A stretch of DNA of 64,000 nucleotides from NCBI GenBank assembly GCA_964524845.1, contig CAZGFX010000002.1, forward strand, positions 227,428-291,427, given 5' to 3'. Source of the stretch: an uncultured Gammaproteobacteria bacterium. Lineage in GTDB: Bacteria; Patescibacteriota; Patescibacteriia; CAZGFX01. The notes under the pieces were generated by a model, which was given only the letters and a program-made list of their open reading frames with translations, made no database searches and was not told the DNA's origin. Every line of letters starts with the position of its first letter. Position 1 is the first letter of the stretch. The translations under genes were made by a program, and so were the position numbers. This document shows, one piece after another, positions 11,999 through 61,432 of the stretch.

Positions 11999-12073
11999 TG
12001 GTGGGTCCAGTGGGGGTCGAACCCACGACCAATAGCTTAAAAGGCTACTGCTCTACCACTGAGCTATAGACCC
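11999..12073 (-). tRNA. tRNA-Lys (anticodon UUU), CCA encoded
   Basis: Reverse complement GGGTCTATAGCTCAGTGGTAGAGCAGTAGCCTTTTAAGCTATTGGTCGTGGGTTCGACCCCCACTGGACCCACCA folds as a cloverleaf. Acceptor GGGTCTA/TGGACCC, anticodon loop CTTTTAA, T-loop TTCGACC. Confidence 0.85.
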
Positions 12074-12174
12074 ATGAGTGGTAAATTAGAAAAGACAAAA
12101 CAGATACATATTAGAAGAACTATAAGATCTTGGCAACCCGCCCCGCAGATCGAACGAAAGTGAGATTGTGCGGG

Positions 12175-12201
12175 GAGCTATAGACCCATGAGTGGTAAAT
12201 T
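12175..12201 (-). repeat. 27-bp direct duplicate of tRNA-Lys 5' end (13 nt) plus 14 nt of its upstream flank
   Basis: gagctatagacccatgagtggtaaatt is identical at 12061-12087 and 12175-12201. A 22-nt direct repeat ccgccccgcagatcgaacgaaa occurs at 12138-12159 and 12275-12297. Hairpins ccccgca...tgcgggg and gtcctgag..ctcaggac lie between. Confidence 0.7.
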
Positions 12202-12380
12202 CTAAATGAAACAATACTTAAATTTTCAAAAAACCACAATAGCTCGGTAACCTTGTCCTGAGCTTGTCTCAGGACCGCCCCGCAGATCGAACGAAAAACA
12301 AAAAACCTGTTGTATTATATGTGCTTTTTTTGTTTTTAGCAAGACGTTTTTTCATATTGCTTTAAATGTAATTTTTGGAA

Positions 12381-17607: not shown

Positions 17608-18327
17608 TTACAACTTTCCAAGGAAAACTCGCTCAAAAATATCTCCGTGCAAAACCTTATCCCCAGGTCCTTCAGTAACAACACGACCCTTGTCTAGAAT
17701 ATATGCCCTATCAACAACAGACAAGAGAGACTTAATATTGTGTTCAACAATCATAATTGCCGTATTGTGTCGTTCGTTTATTTCTTTTATTTTTTCAAAA
17801 ATTTCTTTCACAATCTTCGGAGCAAGACCAAGTGTCGGTTCATCAAGCAAAAGAACTTTCGGATCGCTCATAAGTCCGCGAGCAAGCGCAACCATTTGTT
17901 GTTGTCCTCCCGAAAGCGTTCCTGATGATTGTTTCAGTCTTGATTTTAATATTGGAAACAACTCCATAACTTCTTCAAACTTAATATCCGCGCCTCTTTT
18001 GTCATGAAGTACGAAACCACCTAATTCTATATTTTCTCGAACCGAAAGTGATGGAAAAACCCTTCTCCCCTGCGGTACAAAAGAGATCCCCAAGCGTACC
18101 ATATGATGAGGAATCGGATCAATCTGCTTTTCGTGCCAAAATACTTTTCCTGAATCGATCGGAGCAATTCCAAAAACAGCTTTCAAAATTGTACTTTTCC
18201 CAGCGCCATTAGGACCCATGACAGCAACGATCTCTCCTTCGTCAATAGCAACACTAGCACCATCAAGCGCCTTAACTCCTCCGTAATGTACGGAAATATC
18301 TTTTAGCTGTAATAATGTTTCTTTCAT
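17608..18327 (-). CDS. livF: branched-chain amino acid ABC transporter ATP-binding protein (LivF-type)
   Basis: Walker A GPNGAGKST. ABC signature LSGGQQQ. Walker B LLLDEP. Confidence 0.85.
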   Translation of the reverse strand: MKETLLQLKDISVHYGGVKALDGASVAIDEGEIVAVMGPNGAGKSTILKAVFGIAPIDSGKVFWHEKQIDPIPHHMVRLGISFVPQGRRVFPSLSVRENIELGGFVLHDKRGADIKFEEVMELFPILKSRLKQSSGTLSGGQQQMVALARGLMSDPKVLLLDEPTLGLAPKIVKEIFEKIKEINERHNTAIMIVEHNIKSLLSVVDRAYILDKGRVVTEGPGDKVLHGDIFERVFLGKL

Positions 18328-18389
18328 TTACCCTGTGAAATAAAATTTTTTATTATCGTTCGAACTTGTTTATTGTGTCACCACGAATG

Positions 18390-18606
18390 AATATTATCAT
18401 CATAAGCTTACATTGTCATCCTGAACAATGTCATCCTGAACTAACTTTGTCATCCTGAACTAACTTTGTCATCCTGAACTCGTTTCAGGATCTATGTATC
18501 TGTTTCAGGATCTACCTTGATACATTGTATTTTAGTAAAATTTATTTCTCATATTATCAAAAGTTACACGGTAGATTCTGAAACGAGTTCAGAATGACAG
18601 TGTTGT
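18390..18606. repeat. MITE-like element copy A (repeat family 1)
   Basis: Tandem caatgtcatcctgaa units. Core flanked by TIRs gtcatcctgaactcgtttcag ... ctgaaacgagttcagaatgac. Near-identical core at 26110-26285 and 61231-61432. Confidence 0.6.
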
Positions 18607-18646
18607 ATAATTCGCAATTTGTAATTCGCAATCCGTAATTCAACAC

Positions 18647-19378
18647 CTACTCCCCCAAATATGCCTCGATGACACTTCTTTTCTTAAGCACGTCTTCCGC
18701 TTCACCTTCCGCAAGAAGTTGTCCGCTATCCATCACAATAACATGATCCGAAAGTTCTCTGATAATGTCCATATTATGCTCTATCAGAACGACCGTCTTA
18801 CCATGAGAACGCAATTCCTTGATGACAGTAACTATAATTTTTCTCATTTCCGGAAAAAGACCAGCGAATGGTTCGTCGAGAAGATAAATTTCAGCTTGTA
18901 CAGCAAGCGCTCTCGCGATCTCTAGGAGTTTTCTTTGTCCATAAGACAACTCACGTCCCAGCGCTGTTCTTTTTTCCCAAAGACCAACTTTTTTTAAAAG
19001 TTCCTCTGCACGTCCGAGATGAAACTTGCTGTGTGTTTCAAACAAACTATTAAAAACATTTCTGTCCGTAAGCACCACAAGAAGATTATCGAGCACGGTC
19101 ATTTGTTCGAAAAGTCTCACCTCTTGAAACGTGCGTGTTATTCCATATAAAAATGAATCGTGTGGTTTTATCTTCTTTAAACACGCACTGTCAATACAAA
19201 TCGTACCGCCGTCAAACTGAAGCATACCACTCAGTACGTTTGTAAGAGTTGTTTTTCCTGATCCGTTTGGTCCTATGACGCTTGTTACCTTCCCTTGTTC
19301 TATCTCAATCGAAAGGTCATCTACCGCCCGAATTCCATTGAATCGTTTTGTCAGATTTGCTGTTTTAAGGACGTGCAT
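18647..19378 (-). CDS. livG: branched-chain amino acid ABC transporter ATP-binding protein (LivG-type)
   Basis: Walker A GPNGSGKTT. Signature LSYGQRK. Walker B YLLDEP. Confidence 0.85.
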   Translation of the reverse strand: MHVLKTANLTKRFNGIRAVDDLSIEIEQGKVTSVIGPNGSGKTTLTNVLSGMLQFDGGTICIDSACLKKIKPHDSFLYGITRTFQEVRLFEQMTVLDNLLVVLTDRNVFNSLFETHSKFHLGRAEELLKKVGLWEKRTALGRELSYGQRKLLEIARALAVQAEIYLLDEPFAGLFPEMRKIIVTVIKELRSHGKTVVLIEHNMDIIRELSDHVIVMDSGQLLAEGEAEDVLKKRSVIEAYLGE

Positions 19379-19874: not shown

Positions 19875-20150
19875 CACTTTTGTCAATAACCAAAAACCCC
19901 CTGTATAAAACAAGTTTTTCACTAATTTTCCTCGTAATTTCCCCTTCTCGTAATTCGTTCACCCTGTGAAATAAGATTCGAAACAGGCTGAGGTTTTGTT
20001 TATAAATTAATCAAAAATAATTGATTAAACATATATAATAGTAAAAATTAATCCGAATCTTAATTTCAGTATGAAATTATTTCACAGGGTAAATTCGCAA
20101 TCCGTAATTCTTCTCCCTTCTCGTAATTTCCTATCTCGTAATTCTTAATT
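19875..20150. repeat. non-autonomous copy of the TIR element (repeat family 2) with flanking ctcgtaatt-type short tandem repeats
   Basis: TIRs ttcaccctgtgaaataa (19958-19974) and ttatttcacagggtaaa (20077-20093). Upstream ccaaaaacc..tgtataaaacaagttt shared with the 24790 copy. Confidence 0.55.
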
Positions 20151-20154
20151 TATA

Positions 20155-21288
20155 TTATTCTTTATAATCAACAATCTTACCTCCTTTTATTTGTTTTAAC
20201 TGCAAATTAAGTCCTACAACATCTCCGTTTGAATCAAAATGATATGATCCGAGTACTCCATCATAATTTTTGATTCCATACAAATAATCTTTTACTTTAT
20301 CCGTGTTTGTTCCTACCTTCCCTATCGCCTCAGCAAGTAAATATATTTGATCGTACGCTCCGCCAGCGGCAAAAGGATAGGGTGGTTCTGAGTTATATTT
20401 TGATTTATATACTAACATGAAATCATTTGCTTTTGTATTTTTTGGATCAAAGACAGGTGTGTCAACCATAATTGCTCCCTCGGTTGCAGATCCGGATCCG
20501 GTAAATTCTTCTCCGGATAAAAACGCCCCATAAAGTTGTTGTTTCATACCAGCGTCGCGAATTTGTTTAACAATACGAGCGGCCGTTGGACCTGATTGTG
20601 GATTAAAAACAATTGCATCAGGGTTATTCTCCTTAATTTTTACAAGAAGAGATTTAAAATCCGTCGTTCCTGAAACAAATCTCTCTTGTGCTATAATCGT
20701 ACCACCTAATTCTATATAACGGTTTTTAAAAACATTTTCTATCGCGGTTGTATAATCGGTAAGCTCAGTAATAAGAGCTGTTTTTTTGTATTTTTTAATA
20801 ATTGTCTCAGCAAGAAGCTTTCCACTCTCAGCGTCACTTGGCCATGTACGAAAAACGTAATCTGCCATAGATGTAATTTGAGGACTTGACCCCTGCGCCA
20901 TTACAATAACTTTTTCTTTCTCTGTAATAGGAATGGAAGAGATCACTTCTCCACTACACACAAGCCCAATAATAAATTTTGTTTTATCAATAGACACAAG
21001 TTTTTGGGCAGCTATCGTCGCTTCTTTATTATTGCACTTACTGTCTTCATATATCGGTTCGATTCTTTTTCCATTAATGCCTACGCTCGCATTAATTTCA
21101 TCAATTGCAAGTGTAGTCGCATTCTTTATAGACTCTCCAAAAACAGCTGTTTCTCCTGAAAAAGATGCCATCACACCAATTTTTATCGTGTTTGAATCAC
21201 CGGTTTTTTTATCATTCAACACCGCATACCCGCCACCAATGATAACAAGTGCAATAATTATATAAAGAATTGTCTTATTTGATTTCAT
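20155..21288 (-). CDS. LivK-type (type I periplasmic-binding-fold) substrate-binding protein, TM-anchored
   Basis: N-terminal anchor MKSNKTILYIIIALVIIGGGYA. IKIGV...GE...G motifs of the Leu/Ile/Val-binding family. Confidence 0.8.
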   Translation of the reverse strand: MKSNKTILYIIIALVIIGGGYAVLNDKKTGDSNTIKIGVMASFSGETAVFGESIKNATTLAIDEINASVGINGKRIEPIYEDSKCNNKEATIAAQKLVSIDKTKFIIGLVCSGEVISSIPITEKEKVIVMAQGSSPQITSMADYVFRTWPSDAESGKLLAETIIKKYKKTALITELTDYTTAIENVFKNRYIELGGTIIAQERFVSGTTDFKSLLVKIKENNPDAIVFNPQSGPTAARIVKQIRDAGMKQQLYGAFLSGEEFTGSGSATEGAIMVDTPVFDPKNTKANDFMLVYKSKYNSEPPYPFAAGGAYDQIYLLAEAIGKVGTNTDKVKDYLYGIKNYDGVLGSYHFDSNGDVVGLNLQLKQIKGGKIVDYKE

Positions 21289-21299
21289 ATGTATTATGA

Positions 21300-22433
21300 T
21301 TATTGATTTATGTCTTCTAATTTTTTATTATGTATCCTTCTTAATATAAATTCGCGAACAGCATCTCCGTTTTTATCAATACTAATCATACCACTAGAAC
21401 CTTTATAATTTTGAACTGAGTATAAATAATCCTTGATACAATCTGCTTTATAATTATCTTTGCAGTAAACAATACCATCGTATAACACATTATAAACATC
21501 ATAACCCAGTGTAGCAACCATTGTATCTTTTAAAGAAGTTCCGTATTTTTTCTCATAAGAACTAATTAGGTGTTGTGTCTCTGGGCTTTGTGTATCATAT
21601 TTATACATCGTAACGATCATGCCCTCAGCATCAGGATTGTCTGTAACAACACTCATACTAAAAGTTTCGTTTCCTATTATTTGTTTTTTAATTCCGAACT
21701 CTTTGGTCTGTTTGAGAACAATATTTTGTAACGCTGGAGTTAAAAATACATAAACCAAAGCATCTACGTCTTCGTTCTGTAGTTTTAATAATTGGCTTTT
21801 AACATCCGTGTCGGCTGAATTAACACTTTCTGAAACAATTGTATTTCCTGGGGTTTCCTTAAACTTCTTTTCAAAAACATCTTTCCAAGTAACAGAATAT
21901 TCATTCTTTTCGTAAAGAATACCTAGTTTTTTATATGAAAGTTTTTTAATCATTTCAGCAGAAACATCGGCACGTACTTCAGACGAAGCCGTTATACGAA
22001 ATACGTAATCTCCCGCTGTAGTTAAGTTCGGTGTAGCTGCAATTGGTGTAATTAAAATCACACGATTACTCTCTGCCAAAGGAGCAACAGCAAGAGTAGA
22101 GCTACTACACACTCCTGATATAAGAATTTTCACTTTATCAACATCTATAAGTTTTTGAGCGGCTGAAACAGCTTTTTTCGGATCACACATATCATCTTCG
22201 TATAAAACCTTAATTGTTTTACTTCCTATTTTTTGTTTTTCTTCCTCAGCAAGACGCAAAGAATTAACAGATTCTTCATATGCTCCCGCAAGAGGTCCTG
22301 TAAGAGGCCCAAAATATCCTATCTTTATCACATCAGAATTATTATCAGCTTTCTCATTCTTGAGCATCGCATACCCACCACCAATGATAACAAGCGCGAT
22401 AATTATATAAAGAATTGTCTTATTTGATTTCAT
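21300..22433 (-). CDS. LivK-type substrate-binding protein paralog
   Basis: First 22 aa and ~40 bp of upstream DNA identical to the 20155..21288 gene. Type I SBP fold motifs. Confidence 0.8.
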   Translation of the reverse strand: MKSNKTILYIIIALVIIGGGYAMLKNEKADNNSDVIKIGYFGPLTGPLAGAYEESVNSLRLAEEEKQKIGSKTIKVLYEDDMCDPKKAVSAAQKLIDVDKVKILISGVCSSSTLAVAPLAESNRVILITPIAATPNLTTAGDYVFRITASSEVRADVSAEMIKKLSYKKLGILYEKNEYSVTWKDVFEKKFKETPGNTIVSESVNSADTDVKSQLLKLQNEDVDALVYVFLTPALQNIVLKQTKEFGIKKQIIGNETFSMSVVTDNPDAEGMIVTMYKYDTQSPETQHLISSYEKKYGTSLKDTMVATLGYDVYNVLYDGIVYCKDNYKADCIKDYLYSVQNYKGSSGMISIDKNGDAVREFILRRIHNKKLEDINQ

Positions 22434-22444
22434 ATGTATTATGA

Positions 22445-23602
22445 TTATTGATTATTTTCGTATTTTATAATCTTTGAATCCTTAACTGTTTGCATCTCGA
22501 AACTATCTGGCGGCGTATCAACAAATCCATTTTGTTTAAAAGTAATTGATGTTAATGACACGCCCTGATAATTATTCGTTTTAGCAATGGCATCGCGAAG
22601 TATATCATTTCCCGCTAAATTTGTTTTCTCCAAAGCATCAGTAATAATTCCGACGGCATCATACGCGGTAATCGTACTCGGGAAAAGTACGTCCATTCCA
22701 TATTTTTGTTTGAATTTTTCATTAAATTCTATAAATCTTGACGAACGAACCGGAGCACTAAAATAAACATTTTCTAATTGTTTTGGGCATTGTGACAAAG
22801 AAACATCATTACCAGCGGCCTCAGTAGCTAACAGTGGTATCATAAGACCCATATCCTTCATTTGTTGTAATAAAGCGCATTCATTTATATCTCCAACCAC
22901 CATAAACAAAGCATCTGGTTTTGATTGTTTTATTTTCAAAAGATGAGTACGAAAATCCGTCACAAGCGGATTACCAAGATCAATATCCTCAACAATATTA
23001 ACTCCATAACTCGGAGCCCTCTCTACAAAAATATCATGTGTAAACTTCCAAAAACCACCATCAAACACACGCATCAAAGCGATGTTTTTCAAGTTCTTTT
23101 TCTTCGCAAAATCGAGAACGACATCAATACCAACTCTACTGTCATACCATGTTCCAAAAAGATATTCGTATGATTTTTGTGCTTCAACATTATCGGTGGT
23201 ATTGTGACCAATCATAGGAATCCGAGCCGCCTCAATCGCTGGAAGTATTGCTTCTGTGGGTTCGTCCCATTGTGCACCGACAATTGCTTTTACTTTATCG
23301 ACACTGATGAGTTTATTTGCAACAAGTCCGGCGTTTTTTAGCTTATCAATTGACAAGTCCTCTCCAATAAACTCAATTCTTTTTCCTTTTATACCTCCGT
23401 TGATATTAATTTCTTCGACTGCCAGTTCCGCGCCCCTTAACTCCTCAAGTCCCATTGATGCGCCGGCACCAGTCAAAGCAAACACTCCTCCTATTTTTAC
23501 TGTACCACTGTTCTGTCTTGATTGAAACAAAACATATCCTACAAAAACAATAATAATGATAATAACTGCGATTTTAAATATTCTATTACTTTTCATAATC
23601 AT
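22445..23602 (-). CDS. LivK-type substrate-binding protein paralog
   Basis: N-terminal TM anchor. VKIGGVFALTGAGAS...GIKGKRIE motif block. Confidence 0.8.
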   Translation of the reverse strand: MIMKSNRIFKIAVIIIIIVFVGYVLFQSRQNSGTVKIGGVFALTGAGASMGLEELRGAELAVEEININGGIKGKRIEFIGEDLSIDKLKNAGLVANKLISVDKVKAIVGAQWDEPTEAILPAIEAARIPMIGHNTTDNVEAQKSYEYLFGTWYDSRVGIDVVLDFAKKKNLKNIALMRVFDGGFWKFTHDIFVERAPSYGVNIVEDIDLGNPLVTDFRTHLLKIKQSKPDALFMVVGDINECALLQQMKDMGLMIPLLATEAAGNDVSLSQCPKQLENVYFSAPVRSSRFIEFNEKFKQKYGMDVLFPSTITAYDAVGIITDALEKTNLAGNDILRDAIAKTNNYQGVSLTSITFKQNGFVDTPPDSFEMQTVKDSKIIKYENNQ

Positions 23603-23614
23603 AAATTAAAAAGA

Positions 23615-24769
23615 TTATCCGTCATATCTCATGAACTTTCCATCTTTAACTGTCTTGAAGAAAATTTGCTTAATTGCATCACCATTTTCATCAATATCAA
23701 ATGTACCACTTGCACCCTTAAAACCTTTTGTTTCGTATAAACATTGTTTAACTGCATCAACATCATCTCCCTCAGCCTCAACGCATCCACTCAACAAATA
23801 TGCCGCATCATATGCGTTTGCCGCAACTGTGTCTGGTTCTGTGGAAAAACGCTCAACGTACTTAGAATAAAACCTCTTTACCGCCGGTGATTCGTCGTGA
23901 TTATCGTACGAATATGGATATAGAAGTCCTTCGGCATATTTTCCTGCGTTTTTCACTATTTCAGGACCTTCTGTTCCTAGATTATAAAATTGTGCATCAA
24001 TTCCAAGTTCACGCGCTTGTTTAAGAATAAGGCCGATTTGTTTGTTCCCTGCTATTGTAAAAATACTGGTCGGCTTTTGCGCTTTTAACTTTAATAATTC
24101 AGTTTTAAAATCAGTCGCCTTACTATCAAATTTTTCTATACTACCAATTGTTTTACCACTTGATTCAAAAACAGAACGAAACCTGTTTATATACGGATCA
24201 CTAATGGCTGTATTAATGGCAAGAAAATGAATTACACCTCCTTGCATATGCTTCGCCACGAAACGAGCTGATACAGGTGCCTCTTGTGCAACATTATGAA
24301 TAATTCTGAAAACATAATCTCCTGCTTGTGATATCTCATCTGTTTGAGCACTATGAGAAATCATAATTGTTTTTGATTGCTCTGCAATCGGAGCAACCGC
24401 CAACACTTCTGATGAATTATACGGACCAATAATATAATGGATTTTATCTAAATCAATAAACTTACGAACAGCACTTACAGCAACTTGTGGCTCATACCGA
24501 GTGTCTTCATACAGAAAATTAATTTTGTATTTGTTTTTTGTGTTTGAATTAATTTCTTCTTCCGCAATCGAAATTCCATTTTTTGTAAACTCACCAGCAT
24601 CTGCACGAACCCCGGTAAGAGGAGCAGGAATCCCAATTGTGATTGTCTTAGGATAATCTGGATCATGCCTCAACATAATGACATATCCTGTGACAATAAT
24701 AATCGCAATAATAATTATATATACAGTAATACTAGCCTTTTTTATATTCATATCTTGTTCGTTCAACAC
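23615..24769 (-). CDS. LivK-type substrate-binding protein paralog
   Basis: N-terminal TM anchor. ITIGIPAPLTG motif. Type I SBP fold. Confidence 0.8.
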   Translation of the reverse strand: MLNEQDMNIKKASITVYIIIIAIIIVTGYVIMLRHDPDYPKTITIGIPAPLTGVRADAGEFTKNGISIAEEEINSNTKNKYKINFLYEDTRYEPQVAVSAVRKFIDLDKIHYIIGPYNSSEVLAVAPIAEQSKTIMISHSAQTDEISQAGDYVFRIIHNVAQEAPVSARFVAKHMQGGVIHFLAINTAISDPYINRFRSVFESSGKTIGSIEKFDSKATDFKTELLKLKAQKPTSIFTIAGNKQIGLILKQARELGIDAQFYNLGTEGPEIVKNAGKYAEGLLYPYSYDNHDESPAVKRFYSKYVERFSTEPDTVAANAYDAAYLLSGCVEAEGDDVDAVKQCLYETKGFKGASGTFDIDENGDAIKQIFFKTVKDGKFMRYDG

Positions 24770-24789: not shown

Positions 24790-25180
24790 GCCAAAAAGCA
24801 ACTACCAAAAAACCTTGTATAAAACAAGTTTCCACTAATCCTTCTCGTAATTTTCCCTTCTCGTAATTCGTTCACCCTGTGAAATAAGATTTGAGCCTTC
24901 TTTTAATAAACATCTTACCATAAAAAGTCTTTAAATACTTTTCTCTTCGTGTGGCATCCTGTTGATTAAGACAAACCTCAAAATAAATAAGTTTTAAAGG
25001 TCTTCTCTCTTTTGTTGATGGTATTAACCCTTTATTATGTCGCTCAAATCTTAACTTCAAATTTTTTGTATACCCAGTATACATCTTATTATCTTTTTTA
25101 CTCTTTAATACATATGTATAAAACATATAATAATTGTTTTATATAAAAAATTTGGAGTTATTTCACAGGGTAAATTTATA
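24790..25180. mobile_element. TIR-bounded element carrying a GIY-YIG nuclease gene (repeat family 2, putative autonomous copy)
   Basis: Inverted repeats ttcaccctgtgaaataa (24871-24887) and ttatttcacagggtaaa (25158-25174) bracket the GIY-YIG ORF. Same TIRs and flank occur without the ORF at 19875-20150. Solo TIRs at 18328, 26043 and 56985. Confidence 0.5.
24872..25126 (-). CDS. GIY-YIG nuclease family protein (YhbQ/UPF0213-like, 84 aa)
   Basis: MFYTYVLKSKKDNKMYTGYTKNLKLRFERHNKG matches the GIY-x10-YIG...R...E..H core. Conserved downstream E in LIYFE. Confidence 0.8.
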   Translation of the reverse strand: MFYTYVLKSKKDNKMYTGYTKNLKLRFERHNKGLIPSTKERRPLKLIYFEVCLNQQDATRREKYLKTFYGKMFIKRRLKSYFTG

Positions 25181-26042
25181 ATTTATATTCTCCTTTAAGT
25201 CCTTGTGGGCGATATATCATAAGAAAAACAAGAAGTGCTCCATATACCACCTGTCGCATCTGTGCCGCTATATCGGTTGGAAATCCAACAAAACGCATAA
25301 TTTCCGGTAACAAAATAAGAAACAAGGCACCAAGAAGCGATCCTTCTAAATTAGCAAGACCGCCTAAAATAATTATCGCTAATATAAAAATAGATTCCGG
25401 AAGCGCGAATGTCGACGGATCAATAAATGTAATATAAGAAGCAAAAAGAGCTCCGGCAATTGCGGCCATACCCGCCGATATCATAAAAATAACAAGTTTA
25501 TACTGCAGTGTGTTATATCCGAAAACTTGTAACGCTTTTTCGTCATCACGAATAGCTTTGAGAGCGCGTCCAAACGATGACTTGGTAACATATCGCGCAC
25601 ATATATATACAATGATCATGAATAACGCACTTAAAACAAGAAACGTCAGATTATCACGAAAAACAAATCCGAATATCTCCGGTCTTCCTATTCCTGGAAT
25701 ACCGAGCGGGCCTCGAGTAAGATCCTGCCAGTTCAATAAAATACTAAACACAATAACATTGAAACCAAACGATGCAAGAGCATAATAATCTGATTCAAAT
25801 TTGCTCATAACGAATCCAATTAGAAAGCTCACCGCCATCGAGAGAATGATACTGAATATAACAGCAACAAAAAAATTAACACCGAGCTCAGTCATCAGAA
25901 TTGCCGATGCATACGCACCAACACCATAAAAAGCCGCGTGCGTTACTGACAAAAGCCCTGTATATCCTACGACCAAATTCAAACTTATACCAAGTATGGC
26001 ATATATTGTGAAAAGTATCGCTAAATGTATTAAATATTCCAT
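25176..26042 (-). CDS. livM: branched-chain amino acid ABC transporter permease (LivM-type)
   Basis: 8-10 TM helices. Permease family motifs (GLLSVTHAAFYGVGAY). Confidence 0.8.
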   Translation of the reverse strand: MEYLIHLAILFTIYAILGISLNLVVGYTGLLSVTHAAFYGVGAYASAILMTELGVNFFVAVIFSIILSMAVSFLIGFVMSKFESDYYALASFGFNVIVFSILLNWQDLTRGPLGIPGIGRPEIFGFVFRDNLTFLVLSALFMIIVYICARYVTKSSFGRALKAIRDDEKALQVFGYNTLQYKLVIFMISAGMAAIAGALFASYITFIDPSTFALPESIFILAIIILGGLANLEGSLLGALFLILLPEIMRFVGFPTDIAAQMRQVVYGALLVFLMIYRPQGLKGEYKL

Positions 26043-26109
26043 TTACCCTGTGAAATAAGGTTTTTTTAATTCGTAATTCAAACTTTTTTATTGTACTACA
26101 TTAAAAGAA

Positions 26110-26285
26110 CATTATCATCTTAGATTGACCTTGTCATGTTGAACATTGTCATCCTGAACTGACCCTGTCATCCTGAACTCGTTTCAGGATCTACCTTGAT
26201 ACAATGTTTTCTAGGAAAACTTATAACACATATTATCAAAAGTTACACGGCAGATGCTGAAACGAGTTCAGCATGACATTGTGGC
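26110..26285. repeat. MITE-like element copy B (repeat family 1), followed by cgtaattc short tandem repeats to 26343
   Basis: Same TIRs and core as 18390-18606. Occupies the livH-livM intergenic spacer. Confidence 0.6.
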
Positions 26286-26343
26286 GTAATTCGTAATTAT
26301 TCTTCCCTCTCGTAATTTTCCCTTCTCGTAATTCGTAATTGTA

Positions 26344-27258
26344 TTACTTCTTTTTAAATATTCCCGATGGTCTGAAGAGAAGGAAAACGATAAGCACCCC
26401 AAATGCAATAGCGTCTTTCCACTCGCCGGATATCTTCCAAATACCGAAGTTCTCTATAAATCCGAGAAGCATCGCTCCAGCAAAACCTCCGTATGTATTT
26501 CCAACACCTCCGATAATTGCCGCGATGACACCCTTGAGAAGCAGTGCCATACCCATCGTAGGTTCAAGTCCCGTGTCAAACCCAACAAGTGCACCAGCAA
26601 GTCCGGCAATGGCCGAACCGATAATAAATACAATCGATATTATTTTATTGACATTGATACCAACCACTTTCGAAACCTCCTGATCATCGCTTACAGCACG
26701 AATAGCATATCCGATTTTTGTCTTTTTCAAGAAAATTACAAGTCCTCCCATAATCAACGCCGCGCACACCAACATGATCAATTGTATTTCTGTAATAACA
26801 CCTCCAAAAATAGTATATACTTTATTTTCTGTAAGTGATGTCGAGAGTGTCTGAAATTGACTTGTAAACAAAATCGCTATGATCGCCTGAATTGCCGTAA
26901 AAGCACCGAGAGATGCGACAAGATACACCATGAGAGACGCTTTTCGCGAACGAAGTTGTCTATATATGGACACCTCAAGTCCCCATCCGATCATGGCGGC
27001 AAGAACAACACCAAGAATGACGCTTGGAATGATACCAATCTCCGTATTTTTAATGAAAAACAATGCGGTATAACCACCAACAGCAGCCAGCACCCCGTGT
27101 GCCAGATTAAAAAACTTGGTCGTATTGTACGTCAAATTAAAACCAAGAGCCACGAGCGCATAAATCGCGCCGGCAATAATACTATTGACTGTAAGTTGAA
27201 TGACTATATCCACATGGCTTATTATAGCGAAAATACGAAATAAATCAAAAACACCCAA
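26344..27258 (-). CDS. livH: branched-chain amino acid ABC transporter permease (LivH-type)
   Basis: 304 aa, 8 TM. LivH-like motif GFNLTYNTTKFFNLAHG. Confidence 0.8.
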   Translation of the reverse strand: MGVFDLFRIFAIISHVDIVIQLTVNSIIAGAIYALVALGFNLTYNTTKFFNLAHGVLAAVGGYTALFFIKNTEIGIIPSVILGVVLAAMIGWGLEVSIYRQLRSRKASLMVYLVASLGAFTAIQAIIAILFTSQFQTLSTSLTENKVYTIFGGVITEIQLIMLVCAALIMGGLVIFLKKTKIGYAIRAVSDDQEVSKVVGINVNKIISIVFIIGSAIAGLAGALVGFDTGLEPTMGMALLLKGVIAAIIGGVGNTYGGFAGAMLLGFIENFGIWKISGEWKDAIAFGVLIVFLLFRPSGIFKKK

Positions 27259-27290: not shown

Positions 27291-28391
27291 TTATTTTACA
27301 GGGATCTGCTTTCCGTTTTTAATTTCATAAACACTTGCACGAGATATTACAATTCCGTCCTTATCAACAGAAAGAGGTCCTAAAACTCCTTCAAAATTCG
27401 TAATTTCTTGAAGTGCTTTTGCTATTTCACCAGTTGACGGATAATGATCTTTTCCGACTTTTTCTGTAGAATAGACAAACAAATTAAATACATCATATGT
27501 ATTCGGTGCACCAGGAGTAACTTCCTTATTAAATTCAGAATTAAATTTATTTCTAAATTCATCTGTTGCATTTGCGGCATCAACATACCAACATCCTTCA
27601 ATTAACTCTTTTTGATTTGAAAAAGAAAAAGCCTCAATAGACGTCAGTGGAGTTGTAATTCCAAGATCTTTTATTTGTTTAGTAATTATTTCCAGTTCTG
27701 GAGAAAAAGCAAGAATATATATAATATCAGGATTTTTCTGTTGTATTCTAGTAATTATCGTTTTAAAATCTTTTTCTCCACTGTTATACCATTCGCTTTG
27801 AACGATAGATATATCAGTATCTTTCAAATGTTCTCTGATTTCGTCATCGATGGCTTTCGCTCCTTGTTGATTCAATGCAATTGTTGCAATCTTTTTTATG
27901 CCTCTTTTTTTAAATTCTTCTACAACAAGTTTTGCTTCTTCTGATGGAGGTGTCCAATGCATAAAATTATATTCTCCTTTTGCTATATTTGCATCAGACG
28001 CAATACCAAAATGCACCACTTTATTCGTCTCAGCAACTGGTGTAACAACATTTCCACTTCCTGAAGTAAATGATATAACAGCGCTTACCTTATCAATATT
28101 TATTAACTTATTAACAGCGCTTGCTGTCATTTTTGGATTAAGTTGATCATCTTCATAAACAACATCATATTTATATTTTGTTGTCTTTTTGTCTTTCATA
28201 GCAAGTGTTAAAGAATTTTTAACACCTTCACCAAGATGTGCCATATCACCGGTCAATGGAAGAATTACTCCTATCTTTATCGTCTCCTGTTTATCGTTTT
28301 GTGATGTCTTGTTTGTTGTAATAGTATATACCGCTCCTACAACAACCAAAACAGCTACCACCCAGACTAGAATTTTGTTTTGTTTCGACAT
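27291..28391 (-). CDS. LivK-type substrate-binding protein paralog
   Basis: N-terminus MSKQNKILVWVVAVLVVVGAVYTITTNKTSQNDKQETIKIGVI identical to the 30808..31944 gene. Type I SBP motifs. Confidence 0.8.
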   Translation of the reverse strand: MSKQNKILVWVVAVLVVVGAVYTITTNKTSQNDKQETIKIGVILPLTGDMAHLGEGVKNSLTLAMKDKKTTKYKYDVVYEDDQLNPKMTASAVNKLINIDKVSAVISFTSGSGNVVTPVAETNKVVHFGIASDANIAKGEYNFMHWTPPSEEAKLVVEEFKKRGIKKIATIALNQQGAKAIDDEIREHLKDTDISIVQSEWYNSGEKDFKTIITRIQQKNPDIIYILAFSPELEIITKQIKDLGITTPLTSIEAFSFSNQKELIEGCWYVDAANATDEFRNKFNSEFNKEVTPGAPNTYDVFNLFVYSTEKVGKDHYPSTGEIAKALQEITNFEGVLGPLSVDKDGIVISRASVYEIKNGKQIPVK

Positions 28392-28412
28392 ATAAAAGAA
28401 TTATTATCGATT

Positions 28413-29561
28413 TTATTTATAAATTTCCGGTATTCCATTTCGAATAATTTTAACAACATGCCCTCCAATACGATCACCATCCGCACCTATTTCTACAAGA
28501 CCAGAAGCGCCTTTCCAGTCTTTGACAGATCTGAACCATGCAGCAATTTTAGAAGTGTCAGTACCGACCGCCTTAATAGCGTCACGAATCATATATACAG
28601 CGTCATATTCCGTCTGTCCGTAACTCTGATATGGCATCTCTTTTCCAAATTGTTTTTGATATTCATTAATAAAATTTTTAAATATAGAATTAGTAGGATC
28701 GACACCAAATTCAGCTGCAAAAGCTCCTTCAAGAGCACTTTTATTACGTTGAACCATCTCATTTGCACCTGACACAGCGTCAGACACAATAAGAGATGGC
28801 TTCCAACCTAAATCGGCCATTTGTTTAAAAATGCGATCAGCTGCGGCCGGAGTTTGTGGAACAACGAATAATGCATCTGGGTTCTCATTGCGCAACTTAG
28901 TAAGAATAGTCTTAAAATCAGTAACAGTCGAAGGGAATTCTTCTTTTACTACTGTTCCGCCAAGTTCAGAAAATTTATTATTGAAAGCATTGTATATACC
29001 AAGAGCATAGTCGGTTTGTTCCTGAATAAATGCTATCTTCTTCCATTGTTTATTTGTGTATGCTAATTGAGCAAGTGTTGATCCTTGTGTCGCATCACTT
29101 GGATAATTTCGAACAAAATAATCACTTATTCCGGTCAGTGCTGGACTACTTGACCCAGCAGAAATCATAAATACTTTATTTTCCAGAGCAATTGGAACAG
29201 CGGATAGCGATTCACTACTGCAAAATCCCCCAATAATAATTTTTACTTTATCAACAGTAATAAGTTTTGACGCGGCGTTTGCACCATCTTTGCCACTACA
29301 CTTACCGTCTTCTACTATGAGGTTTATTTTCTTTCCGTTAATACCTCCTGATGCATTAATCTCGTTAACTGCCATTTGATATATATTACGAGCCGGTTCA
29401 CCATAAAAAGCCGCGTCTCCTGACAATGGCACTATTACTCCTATCTTTATCGTCTCCTGTTTATCATTTTGTGATGTCTTGTTTGTTATGATTGTGTACA
29501 CAGCACCTACAATCACAATTATCGCCACAATCCATACTAAAACATTATTTCGTTTACTCAT
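28413..29561 (-). CDS. LivK-type substrate-binding protein paralog
   Basis: Near-identical N-terminal 45 aa to the neighbouring paralogs. SBP fold. Confidence 0.8.
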   Translation of the reverse strand: MSKRNNVLVWIVAIIVIVGAVYTIITNKTSQNDKQETIKIGVIVPLSGDAAFYGEPARNIYQMAVNEINASGGINGKKINLIVEDGKCSGKDGANAASKLITVDKVKIIIGGFCSSESLSAVPIALENKVFMISAGSSSPALTGISDYFVRNYPSDATQGSTLAQLAYTNKQWKKIAFIQEQTDYALGIYNAFNNKFSELGGTVVKEEFPSTVTDFKTILTKLRNENPDALFVVPQTPAAADRIFKQMADLGWKPSLIVSDAVSGANEMVQRNKSALEGAFAAEFGVDPTNSIFKNFINEYQKQFGKEMPYQSYGQTEYDAVYMIRDAIKAVGTDTSKIAAWFRSVKDWKGASGLVEIGADGDRIGGHVVKIIRNGIPEIYK

Positions 29562-29675
29562 AGATTAATTAATTATACCTAAATATTACTCTCTATCTCT
29601 GTCGAAAATCAAGTTTTTATCAACAAAAAAAACGTTAAAAAACCAGGCTTATTACAATTAAAATAAGTTATTAAT

Positions 29676-30779
29676 TTATGGTTTTTTTTCAAGCAATACT
29701 TGCTTTCCGTCTCTTATCTCATATACATCAGCCTTTGAAACAACTATCCCATCTGTATCTATCGTGAGAGATCCCATAGCTCCAGAAAAATCTTTGATTA
29801 TATGAAGATTTTTTATTATCTCATCCGCGGTTGGACGATTGTTTGTTTTTACGTTCTCAATCGCATACACAAGTAATTTTATTATATCGTATGAATTTGG
29901 CGCACCTTGAGTGATTGTTGTTTTGTATGTATTTTCATATAATTGTTTGAATTGTAGTGACGGATCTCCAGCATCAACATACCAACTTCCTTCAAGTAAT
30001 TCTTTGTTCTTTGCCCATGAAAACGCTTCAATCGAAGTAAGTGGTGTGGTAATTCCTAAATCTTTAATTTGTTTTATAACAAGCTCGAGTTCTGGAGAAA
30101 AAGCCTTAATAGATATTATATCTGGATTTCCTTTTTGTGCTTTAAGAATAACCGTTTTAAAATCAGTATCTCCTTTCATAATCAACTCATCTCCGACTAT
30201 TTCAATATCAGTTTTTTTAAGATATTCGTTTGCCGCAGAATGAGTTGCCAACGCGCCCTGTTGATTTAAAGTAATTGAAGATATTTTCTTTATTTCTCTT
30301 TTTTTCAACTCTTCTACAAATAATTTTGCTTTTTCAGCAGGGGGTGTCCAATGAATAAAATTATATTCTCCTTTGGCAATATTCGCATCATTTGCAATGC
30401 CGAAATGAATAATTTTATTCGTCTCAGCTATCGGAGCAATAACATTTCCACTTCCTGAAGTAAACGATATAACCGCATCAACCTTATCTATATTGATAAG
30501 CTTATTGATTGCTGAGGCGGTTTTTTTTGGATCAAGCTGGTCATCCTCAAATATGAGTTCATATTTATAATGTGTGTTTTTTATTGAATCATAAGCCAAA
30601 AGAACACCATTTCGAACACCTTCTCCAAGCGAAGCCATGTTCCCACTCAAAGGAGCGATAACTCCTATTTTAATTATATTATTATTTTCTAAATCTTTTT
30701 TTGTCGCGACAATATAAATTCCACCAACAAAAAATAGACATATCACGATCCATATGATAATTTTATTTTCTTTTGACAT
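29676..30779 (-). CDS. LivK-type substrate-binding protein paralog
   Basis: N-terminal TM anchor. IKIGVIAPLSGNMASLGEG motif. Confidence 0.8.
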   Translation of the reverse strand: MSKENKIIIWIVICLFFVGGIYIVATKKDLENNNIIKIGVIAPLSGNMASLGEGVRNGVLLAYDSIKNTHYKYELIFEDDQLDPKKTASAINKLINIDKVDAVISFTSGSGNVIAPIAETNKIIHFGIANDANIAKGEYNFIHWTPPAEKAKLFVEELKKREIKKISSITLNQQGALATHSAANEYLKKTDIEIVGDELIMKGDTDFKTVILKAQKGNPDIISIKAFSPELELVIKQIKDLGITTPLTSIEAFSWAKNKELLEGSWYVDAGDPSLQFKQLYENTYKTTITQGAPNSYDIIKLLVYAIENVKTNNRPTADEIIKNLHIIKDFSGAMGSLTIDTDGIVVSKADVYEIRDGKQVLLEKKP

Positions 30780-30807
30780 AAAAAATATTATTAATATCGA
30801 TTATTTT

Positions 30808-31944
30808 TTATTCATTTAATTTAATAAACGTTCCGTTTTCTAATTTCATTAATTGAACATCTCTTCTTGCTTCTCCGTTTTCATCGAAATCTATTTTTCC
30901 TCCCGCACCAACGTAATTGTGTGTTTCATATAAAACATTTTTTATTTTTTCTGTATTATAACCGACTTTTTTTACAATATTTATAATAATTTTAAAAGCA
31001 TCATAACCATTTATAGAATAAATTCCTGCGTTTTCGCCATATCTTAATTTATATATATTATTGAAATCTGTGTAAAAAGGGTTATTTTCATCTATTCCTT
31101 CATTAGCAATAATTGTTCCTTCGCTTGAATTTTTAGCTTGTTTATATAAATCATCTGATTTTAAAGAAGATATGCCAAACCACGTCGGCTTCAGTCCTAA
31201 CTCAATGGATCTATTAAAAAAAGTTGCGGCTTGTTCAACAAGCAAAACAGTAAACACTGCGTCTGGGTTTTTTTCTTTTAAACTTAATGCTTTTGTTCTT
31301 AGGTCCATATCTCCTATTTGCAATAAATCACGTGCGATCAACTGTACTCCCATTGCAGAAAGCCTTTCTTCAAACGCATTAATATATGGTAAACCCGCTT
31401 CGTTATTCATTGCAATTGCAGCCACTCTTTTATAACCCTTTTTTTGTATATAATCAGCGATCGCATTTGCCTCGAAAGTCCCATTAACTCGATTTCTAAA
31501 AATAAAATCACCAGCATTGGTAATAGAAGGACTTGATGCAAGTGAAACAAAAAGAAGAACCTTGTTTTCATTTGCAATAGGTGCCATCGCCATAACAGAA
31601 CTACTCCCTGTTCCTGTAATAATTACTTTTACTCTATCAACCGATATTAGCTTTTGAAGTGCGCTAACAGAAGTTTTTGGATCACTTTTTCCATCTTCTA
31701 TTAATATTTGTATATTTTTTCTTACGCCATTTGATTTGTTCTCATTTTCAAAAGCTATTTCAATTCCATTTTTTACCCACCCTCCATATAATGACATTGG
31801 TCCTGTCAAATCTGCTATAACACCAATTTTTATAGTCTCTTGTTTATCGTTTTGTGATGTCTTGTTTGTTGTGATAGTATATACCGCTCCCACAACAACC
31901 AAAACAGCTACCACCCAGACTAGAATTTTGTTTTGTTTGGACAT
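30808..31944 (-). CDS. LivK-type substrate-binding protein paralog
   Basis: 5' ~130 nt identical to the 27291..28391 gene. SBP fold. Confidence 0.8.
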   Translation of the reverse strand: MSKQNKILVWVVAVLVVVGAVYTITTNKTSQNDKQETIKIGVIADLTGPMSLYGGWVKNGIEIAFENENKSNGVRKNIQILIEDGKSDPKTSVSALQKLISVDRVKVIITGTGSSSVMAMAPIANENKVLLFVSLASSPSITNAGDFIFRNRVNGTFEANAIADYIQKKGYKRVAAIAMNNEAGLPYINAFEERLSAMGVQLIARDLLQIGDMDLRTKALSLKEKNPDAVFTVLLVEQAATFFNRSIELGLKPTWFGISSLKSDDLYKQAKNSSEGTIIANEGIDENNPFYTDFNNIYKLRYGENAGIYSINGYDAFKIIINIVKKVGYNTEKIKNVLYETHNYVGAGGKIDFDENGEARRDVQLMKLENGTFIKLNE

Positions 31945-33480: not shown

Positions 33481-33620
33481 TATATAGGATGAGACCTCTT
33501 CCTGACATACGTCAGGACAGGCTCCTCCGGTCGAGGTGACAATTTCCGCAAGGCGGGATCCCGCTTTGCGGTGGGTTGAGCCAAGTGAATGTGCCTGTAC
33601 TGAGCAGAACGAATGTGCCA
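33481..33620. repeat. GC-rich palindromic repeat unit (family 3), copy 1, in the rplU 5' leader region
   Basis: ggatgagacctcttcctgacatacgtcaggacaggc...tcgaggtgacaa, shared with 56711-56812. Strong palindrome ccgcaaggcggga/tcccgctttgcgg. Far more GC-rich than the surroundings. Confidence 0.5.
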
Positions 33621-56710: not shown

Positions 56711-56812
56711 GTGGATGAGACCTCTCCCTGACATGCGTCAGGGCAAGCATATTCGTTCGAGGTGACAAAGTTGGTCGAGGTGACAAGTCCCGCCGAGCGT
56801 CAGCGATGACGG
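56711..56812. repeat. GC-rich palindromic repeat unit (family 3), copy 2
   Basis: ggatgagacctctccctgacatgcgtcagggcaagc...tcgaggtgacaa, shared with 33481-33620. Confidence 0.5.
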
Positions 56813-56820
56813 GATATTAA

Positions 56821-56984
56821 CAATGTCATCCTGAACAATGTCATCCTGAATAATGCCATCCTGAACAATGTCATCCTGAACAATGTCATCCTGAACAATG
56901 TCATCCTGAATTTATTTCAGGATCTATGTATCTGTTTCAGGATCTGTGTATCTATTTCAGGATCTGTGTATCTGTTTCAGGATG
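56821..56984. repeat. tandem arrays of 6 x 15 bp (caatgtcatcctgaa) then 3.5 x 20 bp (tttcaggatctgtgtatctg); arms mutually complementary
   Basis: Direct reading. Units are the same motifs that form the family-1 MITE termini. Followed by a solo family-2 TIR at 56985-57005. Confidence 0.7.
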
Positions 56985-57529
56985 AAATTATTTCACAGGG
57001 TAAATTCATAATTTTTCTAAAATCAAAAACCCCGTAGCAAAAAATAACTAGATAAATATGCTACGGGGTTCAACCTATACCTATATACACGTCTGAGATA
57101 CGTATTACTATCTATACGAATAAGCTTTTGGATGAGGATTTGGGATTCGATCAGTTAGCCTCCATCTTTTTATGTGTACAAAATCTTTTCGACATTGGAA
57201 GTTTTCGGATCTTATGAAATAAGTTCTCGGACCTCCTTATGTGCCTAAAAACGATTTTGTAACGTGCCTATATATCGCCCGCATAGGAAGTTTAGTACAC
57301 GAACGAAACAATGGCATAAGTAAATATTGCTTGAAAAGTAACCACGGATTCCAAATGCACTCATCCACTATAGGTTTACGCCCACTTACAAAAAATTACA
57401 AATGAGAAAATCACCGTTTTGTACCCTGTTATGCACTTCTTATTTTTCCGCTAAAATAACATCTTTTAAAACAAGTTTATAATCATTATTTAACGAATAA
57501 AAAAAACAAACAGGAGAATTTAGTAGGGT

Positions 57530-58595: not shown

Positions 58596-59456
58596 TTAAA
58601 AATGTAGCTCATACCTGTCACTATATATTCTAAAAACAATCGTTCCTTTTTCATCTGTGCGTAATATTTTTACTCCGCGCTTAAGAAGACGTTCAACTGC
58701 TTCAGCATGAGGATGACCATATGAATTTCCAATTCCAACTGATATTACAGCATACTCTGGCTTCGTCAAAGAAAGAAACTCATCTGATGTTGATCCCTTG
58801 CTTCCATGATGAGCCACTTTCAATATATCAACATCGGGAATAAGCGAATTATCAATGTTCGACTCTTCCGTAATCGGCAAATCACCTGTCAGAAGAATTT
58901 TTGAGTCTCCATATTCAACGAGCACGACAATTGAGAGATCATTCAAATCCTCCGGGCGGCGCGGCGGCGGACTTTTTGGATGAAGCACTGTCAAACGAAC
59001 TCCGTCAATCTCATACACATTACCTGCATATGGGGCAATAATACGAGCACCTTCTTCTTTTAATGCATCTTCATATACAGAATAAGACGATGAGCCATCT
59101 CCATCGGTGTTTTCAAGAATATTCTTTACATTATATCTATCCAAAACTTCTATAAGCCCTATATAATGATCCGTATGAGGATGTGTCAATATCATCAAAT
59201 CAATATCTCTATCATATAAAGACATCTTCCTTCCTATACTTTGTATACAACGAAGATCAGGACCTCCATCAATAAGAATACTTTTATGATGAGGGGTTAT
59301 TATTAATGTTCCGTCGCCATTTCCTACATTAAAAAATATAATCTCGGTATATGAGCGATTTAGTGTAAAATGAGCATGAACCGCCGCGCCGCCCGCACAG
59401 AGTAAGCTCAAAATACATATGATAATTTTCTTTTTATTAAAATGAAACATATGCAT
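58596..59456 (-). CDS. comEC: ComEC C-terminal metallo-beta-lactamase domain protein (separate ORF)
   Basis: HPHTDHYIGL MBL motif, plus a preceding TM segment. Overlaps the upstream ComEC N-terminal ORF out of frame. Confidence 0.65.
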   Translation of the reverse strand: MHMFHFNKKKIIICILSLLCAGGAAVHAHFTLNRSYTEIIFFNVGNGDGTLIITPHHKSILIDGGPDLRCIQSIGRKMSLYDRDIDLMILTHPHTDHYIGLIEVLDRYNVKNILENTDGDGSSSYSVYEDALKEEGARIIAPYAGNVYEIDGVRLTVLHPKSPPPRRPEDLNDLSIVVLVEYGDSKILLTGDLPITEESNIDNSLIPDVDILKVAHHGSKGSTSDEFLSLTKPEYAVISVGIGNSYGHPHAEAVERLLKRGVKILRTDEKGTIVFRIYSDRYELHF

Positions 59457-60924: not shown

Positions 60925-60948
60925 TTACAAAACACCCTCAAGCGCCGT

Positions 60949-61110
60949 CGGTGGATAAACTAGCGCCGCCTGCCCTTCTCTTGCGAAGCAAGAGATAGGG
61001 TCGGTGGATAAACTAGCGCCGCCTGCCCTTCTCTTGCGAAGCAAGAGATAGGGTCGGTGGATAAACTAGCGCCGCCTGCCCCCTAGCGAAGCGAGGGACC
61101 TTACTGAGCG
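60949..61110. repeat. 3 x 53-bp GC-rich tandem repeat, each unit with a DnaA-box-like GGTGGATAA and a ctcttgc-gaa-gcaagag hairpin
   Basis: Units begin at 60949, 61002 and 61055 (third degenerate). 20-bp sub-repeats ccttactgagcgaagcgagg x2 at 61097-61135. Confidence 0.7.
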
Positions 61111-61189
61111 AAGCGAGGAACCTTACTGAGCGAAGCAAGAGATAGGGTCTGTTGATAAACCCTCTCACCATACACAAAACAAACCTCAT

Positions 61190-61230: not shown

Positions 61231-61432
61231 ATGTCATCCTGAACCATGTCATCCTGAATTTATTTCAGGATCTATATATCTGTTTCAGAATCTTCCTTGA
61301 TACATTGTGTATTATGTCATTCTGAACTTGTTTCAGAATCTTCCTTGATACATTGTTTTCTAGGAAAACTTATATTTCATATTATTAAAAGTTACACTGC
61401 AGATGCTGAAACGAGTTCGGCATAACGCAATG
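61231..61432. repeat. MITE-like element copy C (repeat family 1, with internal 40-bp duplication)
   Basis: Same termini and core as 18390-18606 and 26110-26285. Confidence 0.6.

Follow-up and report, generated by a model that had tools for sequence, protein, structure and literature searches.

Stand-alone GIY-YIG proteins of about 94 amino acids, termed Ssn (CDD cd10448), bind and cut single-stranded DNA (ssDNA) beside hairpin repeats, on one strand only (Chenal et al., Nat Commun 2025, PMC11893778). The repeat, the NTS, reads CGTC-ATTCCCGCG-loop-CGCGGGAAT-C-YRG, and its generalised form is the Ssn-related motif (SRM) (PMC11893778). Cleavage is governed by the three nucleotides 5' of the palindrome and binding by the C 3' of it; the loop is dispensable, and the halves may be supplied separately, split halves being cleavable in vitro (PMC11893778). 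The usual arrangement is NTS-ssn-NTS, dRS3 is the core of the NTS, and in Neisseria the Ssn system restricts incoming transforming ssDNA (PMC11893778). This work was reached through a literature search with a related string, TCATTCCCGCG, and searches with the exact strings of the hairpin described here returned chance primer matches only.

In the window, that is the whole 64-kb stretch of DNA that was analysed, three non-coding copies of 110-130 bp each and one pure tandem array occur far above chance. They are probably clusters of a strand-asymmetric ssDNA hairpin repeat (GTC, 8-bp stem, 5-nt loop, C) of the NTS/SRM class, arranged in the manner of NIMEs or REPINs. In all likelihood they add a new case to a repeat system already known and do not represent a classical transposon. 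A first-pass annotation had placed full copies at 18390-18606, 26110-26285 and 61231-61432, and all were found, with a common core and inverted ends; its pure array at 56821-56984 is also present, its extent here being 56819-56984. Every copy is non-coding and lies between open reading frames (ORFs), as had been said, and the description of a multi-copy family with inverted-repeat bounds and a lineage-specific core is upheld. With at most one mismatch, GTCATCCTGAA occurs at 20 sites, half or whole, in the 64-kb window against 1.09 +/- 1.17 in shuffles, and the core 20-mer CATATTATCAAAAGTTACAC three times against 0.04 expected. In the three-copy alignment similarity runs from TGTCAT to CATGAC with unrelated flanks directly outside, and copies 2 and 3 show 89% identity across 112 bp. 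Tandem Repeats Finder reported a period of 15 at 56819-56910 (6.1 copies, 94% matches), a period of 20 at 56915-56983 (3.5 copies, 93% matches) and a period of 19 at 18413-18480 (3.8 copies).

Copy 1 is located between a livG-like (18647-19378, minus strand) and a livF-like gene (17608-18327, minus), both ATPase genes. It begins with three extra 5' half-sites on the plus strand at 18413..18467 (GTCATCCTGAAC plus spacer, with periods of 15 and 19), followed by the left hairpin GTC-ATCCTGAA-CTCGT-TTCAGGAT-C at 18468..18492 (plus), which as ssDNA folds at -6.1 kcal/mol (z -4.5). The lineage-specific core (CCTTGATACATTGT...CATATTATCAAAAGTTACAC), delimited by alignment, spans 18493..18573 (plus), with one extra 3' half-site after the left hairpin at 18503-18512, and folding places the inverted right hairpin, with the stem variant ATTCTGAA/TTCAGAAT, at 18574..18598 (minus). 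Copy 2 lies between a livH-like (26344-27258, minus) and a livM-like gene (25176-26042, minus), both permease genes. Its left part, 26133..26191 (plus), holds two 5' half-sites, one of them degenerate, and then the left hairpin 26167-26191 with stem ATCCTGAA; the core at 26192..26252 (plus) is 89% identical to that of copy 3 by alignment, and the right hairpin at 26253..26277 (minus) has the stem variant ATGCTGAA/TTCAGCAT, a compensatory G:C. Copy 3 (61233..61426, plus) is found upstream of a comEC-like gene (59437-60894, minus). Its first part consists of a 5' half-site, the hairpin 61248-61272, a 3' half-site and a duplicated core start, and its second part of the hairpin 61316-61340 (ATTCTGAA), the core and a degenerate inverted right hairpin at 61402-61426, which begins GTTAT, has one stem mismatch and is also of the ATGCTGAA type. 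The pure array at 56819..56984 (plus) contains six 15-bp 5' half-site units, the hairpin 56900-56924 and three further 20-bp 3' half-site units. As for the host, the best EF-G matches are at 66-69% identity, in Uhrbacteria, Falkowbacteria and Parcubacteria, which places it in a divergent Patescibacteria lineage. That these might be the only copies, kept in synteny among relatives, had been named as the outcome that would speak against a mobile family; it was not what was found, and a public contig that is 100% identical ends inside copy 1, as assemblers break at dispersed repeats.

Each of the ends first described as terminal inverted repeats (TIRs) is a self-folding 25-nt unit, GTC-AT[C/G/T]CTGAA-5 nt-TTCAG[G/C/A]AT-C, built of a perfect 8-bp stem and a 5-nt loop, with GTC before and C after. 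Seven units are intact in the window, at 18468-18492 (plus), 18574-18598 (minus), 26167-26191 (plus), 26253-26277 (minus), 56900-56924 (plus), 61248-61272 (plus) and 61316-61340 (plus); GTCAT begins all seven, AT-C closes all seven, and single units fold as ssDNA at -5.3 to -6.7 kcal/mol. The ends are thus inverted but are not element-specific transposon ends, as each is a hairpin common to many genomes. The 15- and 20-bp terminal units do form tandem arrays and can be refined as half-sites of the hairpin, joined by a 19-bp period: the 15- and 19-bp units repeat the 5' half (GTCATCCTGAAC plus spacer) and the 20-bp units the 3' half (GTTTCAGGATC plus spacer). The paired hairpins within a doublet differ in the stem, the left having C:G and the right T:A or G:C, so that each small hairpin is perfect, but pairing of one TIR with the other leaves two mismatches. 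The hairpin of full length, which had been predicted as perfect, is very stable (-28.2 kcal/mol, z -8.9) but imperfect.

Covariation indicates that the hairpin structure is under selection. Among 58 instances chosen regardless of pairing, by means of a pattern with five free stem positions, 39 are fully Watson-Crick at these five positions, whereas 1000 shuffles gave 8.5 on average and never more than 17. At stem position 6, 25 of the 58 have G:C, 14 have C:G and 11 have T:A. The compensatory changes keep each small hairpin, not the long TIR-TIR stem.

When the units are set beside the NTS/SRM, all seven have GTC(W)(Y), i.e. GTC(A/T)(T/C), at the palindrome foot and a C directly after the palindrome. 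The palindrome is short, imperfect and foldable as ssDNA (8-bp stem, 5-nt loop), giving a strand-asymmetric hairpin, and the copies are many, clustered and intergenic (20 sites in 64 kb against 1.1). Further likenesses are the unit bracketed by inverted hairpins, the multi-phylum presence and a small single-domain GIY-YIG gene close by. The differences are that the stem ATCCTGAA has a higher AT content and does not fit the degenerate pattern as published, that the host belongs to Patescibacteria, that the half-site tandem arrays are unusually long, and that the neighbouring GIY-YIG gene is of a subfamily whose relatives have no hairpins. The published SRM pattern, HGTCWYN(0-2)YYVSBRHN(0-5)WNVSBRGN(0-2)RNCYNB, gave 0 matches in the window, and the NTS control was matched. 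At five of six loci (L077, L201-L203 and L205), hairpins on either side of Ssn-type genes likewise go undetected by this pattern, whose narrowness means that a lack of matches does not exclude membership; it is better taken as a search tool than as a definition. The window elements share with Neisseria dRS3 and the Neisseria intergenic mosaic elements (NIMEs) units of 50-150 bp, inverted 20-nt palindromic ends and intergenic clusters, but have another stem, half-site arrays and, interleaved with the hairpins, the cassette arms as a second, unrelated repeat.

Ssn-type genes were bracketed by GTC-hairpins at all six loci examined, which are from Alteromonadales. In Psychrosphaera (L077), a 96-aa GIY-YIG gene has GTC-ATCCTGAC-GGAG-GTCAGGAT-C on both sides, with a stem equal to the window stem at 7 of 8 positions; half-sites are arrayed in tandem here too, and a hairpin identical to that of the window is found at a distance of 450 bp. 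The homologues in other Alteromonadales genera (L201-L205) are bracketed in five of five cases, with hairpins on the gene strand upstream of the gene and inverted hairpins downstream of it; their stems are genome-specific, one locus having 37-bp whole-hairpin arrays and another tandem doublet modules. The window doublets may hence be regarded as the same bracket with a short non-coding core replacing the gene. The three copies would then be convergent doublets, in which a 55-80 nt lineage-specific core is flanked by two hairpins pointing inward, i.e. an ssn-type bracket without the gene, comparable to Neisseria NIMEs or REPINs.

The hairpin is distributed far beyond this host. A search pattern with 20 fixed bases, GTCATCCTGAAYNNNTTTCAGGAT, for which we estimate about 2 chance matches in 596 Gb, matched more than 119 genome stretches from about 10 phyla, including Patescibacteria, Bacteroidota, Sphingomonadales, other Alphaproteobacteria, Gastranaerophilales, Treponema, Elusimicrobiota, Firmicutes, Gammaproteobacteria and others, and 47 viral contigs also carry the 25-nt hairpin. 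The GC content of the loci listed runs from 31% to 68%, and the hairpin is almost unchanged in genomes of 31% to 71% GC. Elsewhere the identical 25-nt hairpin occurs solo, arrayed or paired around unrelated spacers, and these spacers are unrelated to the window core, the 20-mer of which was not found in the viral contigs or in any hairpin locus examined. Convergent partners outnumber divergent ones by 45 to 11 among the matches listed, with a median gap of 37 nt; two different stems are present in 37 of 42 doublets, and the commonest pair, ATCCTGAA with ATGCTGAA, is also the one that copy 2 of the window has. In three phage-like IMG/VR contigs (L225, L222 and L237), 13, 11 and 9 GTC-hairpin-C units with several stems were observed, all on the same DNA strand within each contig whatever the ORF direction, and no GIY-YIG ORF was detected in these three contigs.

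The only GIY-YIG gene in the window is a single-domain ORF of 84 aa at 24872..25126 (minus; PF01541, E 1.9e-16), a candidate nuclease. It is intact, lies 1 kb from copy 2 and is not directly flanked by hairpins. Its catalytic-type residues are spaced like Y6, Y17 and E64 of SsnA, the residues mutated in that protein (PMC11893778). The protein has thousands of relatives at 65-84% identity in Patescibacteria, its best solved-structure matches are UPF0213 proteins, and it is 30% identical to the Ssn-type protein of L077. Hairpins are almost absent beside its relatives, with three GTC-hairpin-C units in 288 kb at 80 metagenome loci of the closest relatives, and the relatives' genes are bracketed instead by an inverted repeat of their own, which covaries. 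The 84-aa protein is therefore unproven as the cognate nuclease. Conversely, tblastn, HMM and a GIY-YIG regular expression placed such a gene within 8 kb of the hairpin at one of the 119 hairpin loci listed (L077), as expected for dispersed repeats, and this figure lends no independent support.

With its own inverted-repeat arms, the gene occupies 24866..25182 (minus), the arms being TCACCCTGTGAAATAA at 24869-24884 and TTATTTCACAGGGTAAAT at 25158-25175, and the TCACCCTGTGAAATAA arm encodes the C-terminus SYFTG*. In relatives the upstream arm reads (T)TCACCCTGT[T/G/C]AAATAA and the downstream arm TTATTT[A/C/G]ACAGGGT[A/G]A, which supplies the last codons and the stop; the central bases of the arms are complementary in 51 of 52 distinct loci (T:A 32, G:C 11, C:G 8). 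Across loci L121-L200 the inverted repeat, 14-17 bp long, is present almost everywhere, and its downstream arm encodes KSY[L/F]TG and the stop. Judged by sequence, the gene with its arms looks like a compact mobile gene cassette, of which a literature search found no published description. At L121, the gene upstream of the cassette ends ...QDYCGCEFTL* with its stop within the cassette arm (1957-1995), and a second copy of that gene end (QDYCGCEFSIRSQG*) is seen just downstream of the cassette (2362-2405); it appears that on insertion the 3' end of the target gene was both replaced and duplicated.

The cassette arm has seven copies in the window, four of them within 70 bp of hairpin clusters, and no co-occurrence of arm and hairpin was found in other genomes. 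A gene-less mini-cassette at 19953-20101 has both arms, about 95 bp apart, and solo arms were noted at three places, 18322-18351, 26037-26066 and 56975-57012. The first of these (18322..18351, minus) is at the livF start codon, reading TTATTTCACAGGGTAA-ATG on the gene strand, and the second (26037..26066, minus) at the livM start codon; the pure array directly adjoins the third, with the arm itself at 56988-57005. The TTATTTCACAGGGTAA placed right before the ATG of livF and livM reproduces the stop-ATG junction that follows many intact cassettes in relatives, which suggests insertion directly upstream of start codons. A block of about 320 bp, 71% identical and inclusive of the solo arms by livF and livM, is common to copies 1 and 2.

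An origin of these blocks before livF and livM from the cassette (24866-25182), as decayed or non-autonomous copies directed to gene starts by the mechanism that the cassette itself uses, with the hairpins as a later acquisition, is unlikely. Copies 1 and 2 can be aligned over 18322-18640 and 26037-26317 including the solo arm at the ATG, the arm-ATG junction is the one found in many relatives (GGGTAA-ATG), the mini-cassette at 19953-20101 is such a gene-less form, and a junction TTTCAG[G/T]ATGAAATTATTTCACAGGGTAAAT recurs at 20064 and 56975. However, copy 3 has no cassette arm, a search of the blocks revealed no residual GIY-YIG coding sequence, and in other genomes the hairpin loci are without the arm and the cassette loci without hairpins. 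An origin at the RNA level, with the hairpins as operon punctuation that stabilises or processes liv mRNA, or as promoters or sRNA precursors, seems very unlikely even though a single ABC-transporter operon has copies 1 and 2 in the gaps between its cistrons, the long hairpin is highly stable, and the gene strand carries promoter-like hexamers, among which ATGACA resembles a -35 box. Among the 119 matches listed, no orientation bias relative to flanking genes was observed (98 on the same strand, 91 opposite); no T-run terminators were seen when the hairpins were scanned for them; at the gathering threshold Rfam recognised tRNA alone in the whole window, and a permissive region scan gave only sub-threshold generic miRNA-hairpin matches. 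Furthermore, G:T pairs, the equivalent of G:U in RNA, were not enriched among the exceptions in the 58 instances, which argues against an RNA-only constraint. Taken together with the covariation and the asymmetric GTC...C flanks, these results point to strand-specific recognition of ssDNA rather than to an RNA element. An RNA-level effect in the liv operon could arise as a by-product of the hairpins, and is unsupported as the reason for their conservation.

The first-pass annotation had taken the family for MITE-like, and a classical MITE would be a non-autonomous DNA transposon with TIRs of 21-25 bp recognised by a DDE transposase encoded elsewhere. The window copies resemble bacterial MITEs such as Correia, RUP and Nezha in being small, non-coding, TIR-bounded, intergenic and capable of a long hairpin, and three dispersed copies at 75-89% identity with sharp edges at TGTCAT/CATGAC would fit such an element. 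A search for target-site duplications, which that annotation had proposed, found none at any of the three copies (TAACTT|...|AGTGTT, TGACCC|...|ATTGTG and GTATTA|...|GCAATG), and neither a transposase, a matching IS nor another autonomous partner with these ends is present in the window. All-against-all ORF clustering of the 119 matches listed showed no protein family recurrently near the hairpin. Moreover, the ends are individually palindromic and not private to the family, as they occur solo, arrayed and around unrelated cores in many phyla; covariation keeps the small hairpins, and the two ends of a doublet mostly differ. A classical MITE is thus unsupported and highly improbable. Doublets of hairpins mobilised by a RAYT, an IS200/IS605-type Y1 HUH transposase, would share with the window the inverted imperfect palindromes, the ssDNA-type covariation, the intergenic dispersal with positions inside operons, and a repeat-flanked cognate gene. 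The conserved 5' foot of REPs is GT[A/G]G. The foot in the window is GTCAT, not GT[A/G]G (GTAG in REP/BIME and REPIN-RAYT systems), the gene family bracketed by such hairpins encodes GIY-YIG and not Y1 HUH proteins, REPs are species-specific whereas this hairpin is conserved across phyla, and no Y1 transposase was found in the window or among the 119 hairpin loci listed, nor did any protein family recur at these loci. A REP/REPIN origin is likewise highly improbable.

If the units are NTS/SRM-class hairpins, their mode of action may be modelled on the Ssn system (Chenal et al. 2025). DNA would become single-stranded in replication, repair or ComEC uptake, and each unit would then fold. A small GIY-YIG nuclease would bind the stem and the following C and nick only the strand concerned, a few nucleotides 5' of GTC; such nicking would shorten or fragment the ssDNA and modulate recombination. 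The half-site arrays may have grown through slippage or nick-associated resynthesis.

It is conceivable, but quite doubtful, that hairpin and cassette repeats form one system. The cassette arms, (T)TC-ACCCTG[TG]AAA ... TTTCA[CA]GGGT-GA(A), resemble the two outer halves of a ACCCTGAA-type hairpin doublet with the gene in the loop, and the small nuclease would then recognise a stem made from distant halves, by analogy with the split NTS halves (PMC11893778). Gene-less doublets and the 15/20-bp arrays would be footprints of repeated nick-and-copy events, the array period corresponding to a leader of about 4 nt, GTC and an 8-nt arm. Were this so, there would for the first time be evidence at the sequence level of the way in which Ssn-type nucleases make and propagate their repeats, and this in a Patescibacteria host that depends on competence and has one cluster directly upstream of comEC.

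Repeats of this kind are already known. What is noteworthy is that this hairpin is so widespread and escapes the published pattern, that it recurs as a conserved heterologous pair, that its half-sites form extreme arrays, and that a second GIY-YIG cassette is interleaved with it. If the NTS/SRM assignment is true, the partnership of Ssn and hairpin would take in a very numerous class of repeats beyond the reach of the published pattern, among them those of Patescibacteria, Bacteroidota, Sphingomonadales and phage-like contigs. A near-identical 25-nt hairpin, usually in the same non-identical pair, at 31-71% GC implies either a strongly constrained protein-DNA interface or frequent horizontal spread. 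For annotation, hairpin units may account for many spurious short ORFs, assembly breaks and 'MITE' calls. In the host, by analogy, the units would mark predicted ssDNA nick sites, including sites within an amino-acid transporter operon and upstream of comEC.

Other repeats are found in the vicinity. Short tandem arrays of TCGTAATT / CTCGTAATTTTCCCTT occur at 18608-18641, 19926-19958, 20095-20150, 24839-24871 and 26291-26340, where they flank hairpin doublets and cassette arms, so that the intergenic mosaic has three components. At 33487-33542 and 56713-56790 are two members, 84% identical, of yet another repeat family, with the hairpin CCCTGACATGCGTCAGGG; the second member, immediately left of the array at 56819, also holds two GGTGACAA units, which on the opposite strand resemble TTGTCACC half-sites. 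At 60947-61136, a perfect 53-bp tandem repeat of 2.5 copies with the hairpin TCTCTTGC-GAAG-CAAGAGA is followed by a 22-bp tandem repeat, AGCGAAGCGAGGAACCTTACTG, which resembles the 3' half-sites of another widespread hairpin type (GTCATTCCGAGCGAAGCGAGGAATC), and these repeats together with copy 3 fill the region upstream of comEC. The comEC-like locus itself (58596-60894) consists of two overlapping ORFs, for the competence domain (59437-60894) and the metallo-beta-lactamase domain (58596-59471), as a result of either a frameshift or a natural split. A 78-bp direct repeat at 12061-12252, 76% identical and with copies 114 bp apart, adjoins a tRNA gene (12002-12073, minus). The liv-type ABC transporter cluster contains, at 20155-24769 and 27291-31944, eight paralogous ORFs in tandem, each about 366-385 aa long; they presumably encode substrate-binding proteins, and their number is unusually high for a Patescibacteria genome.
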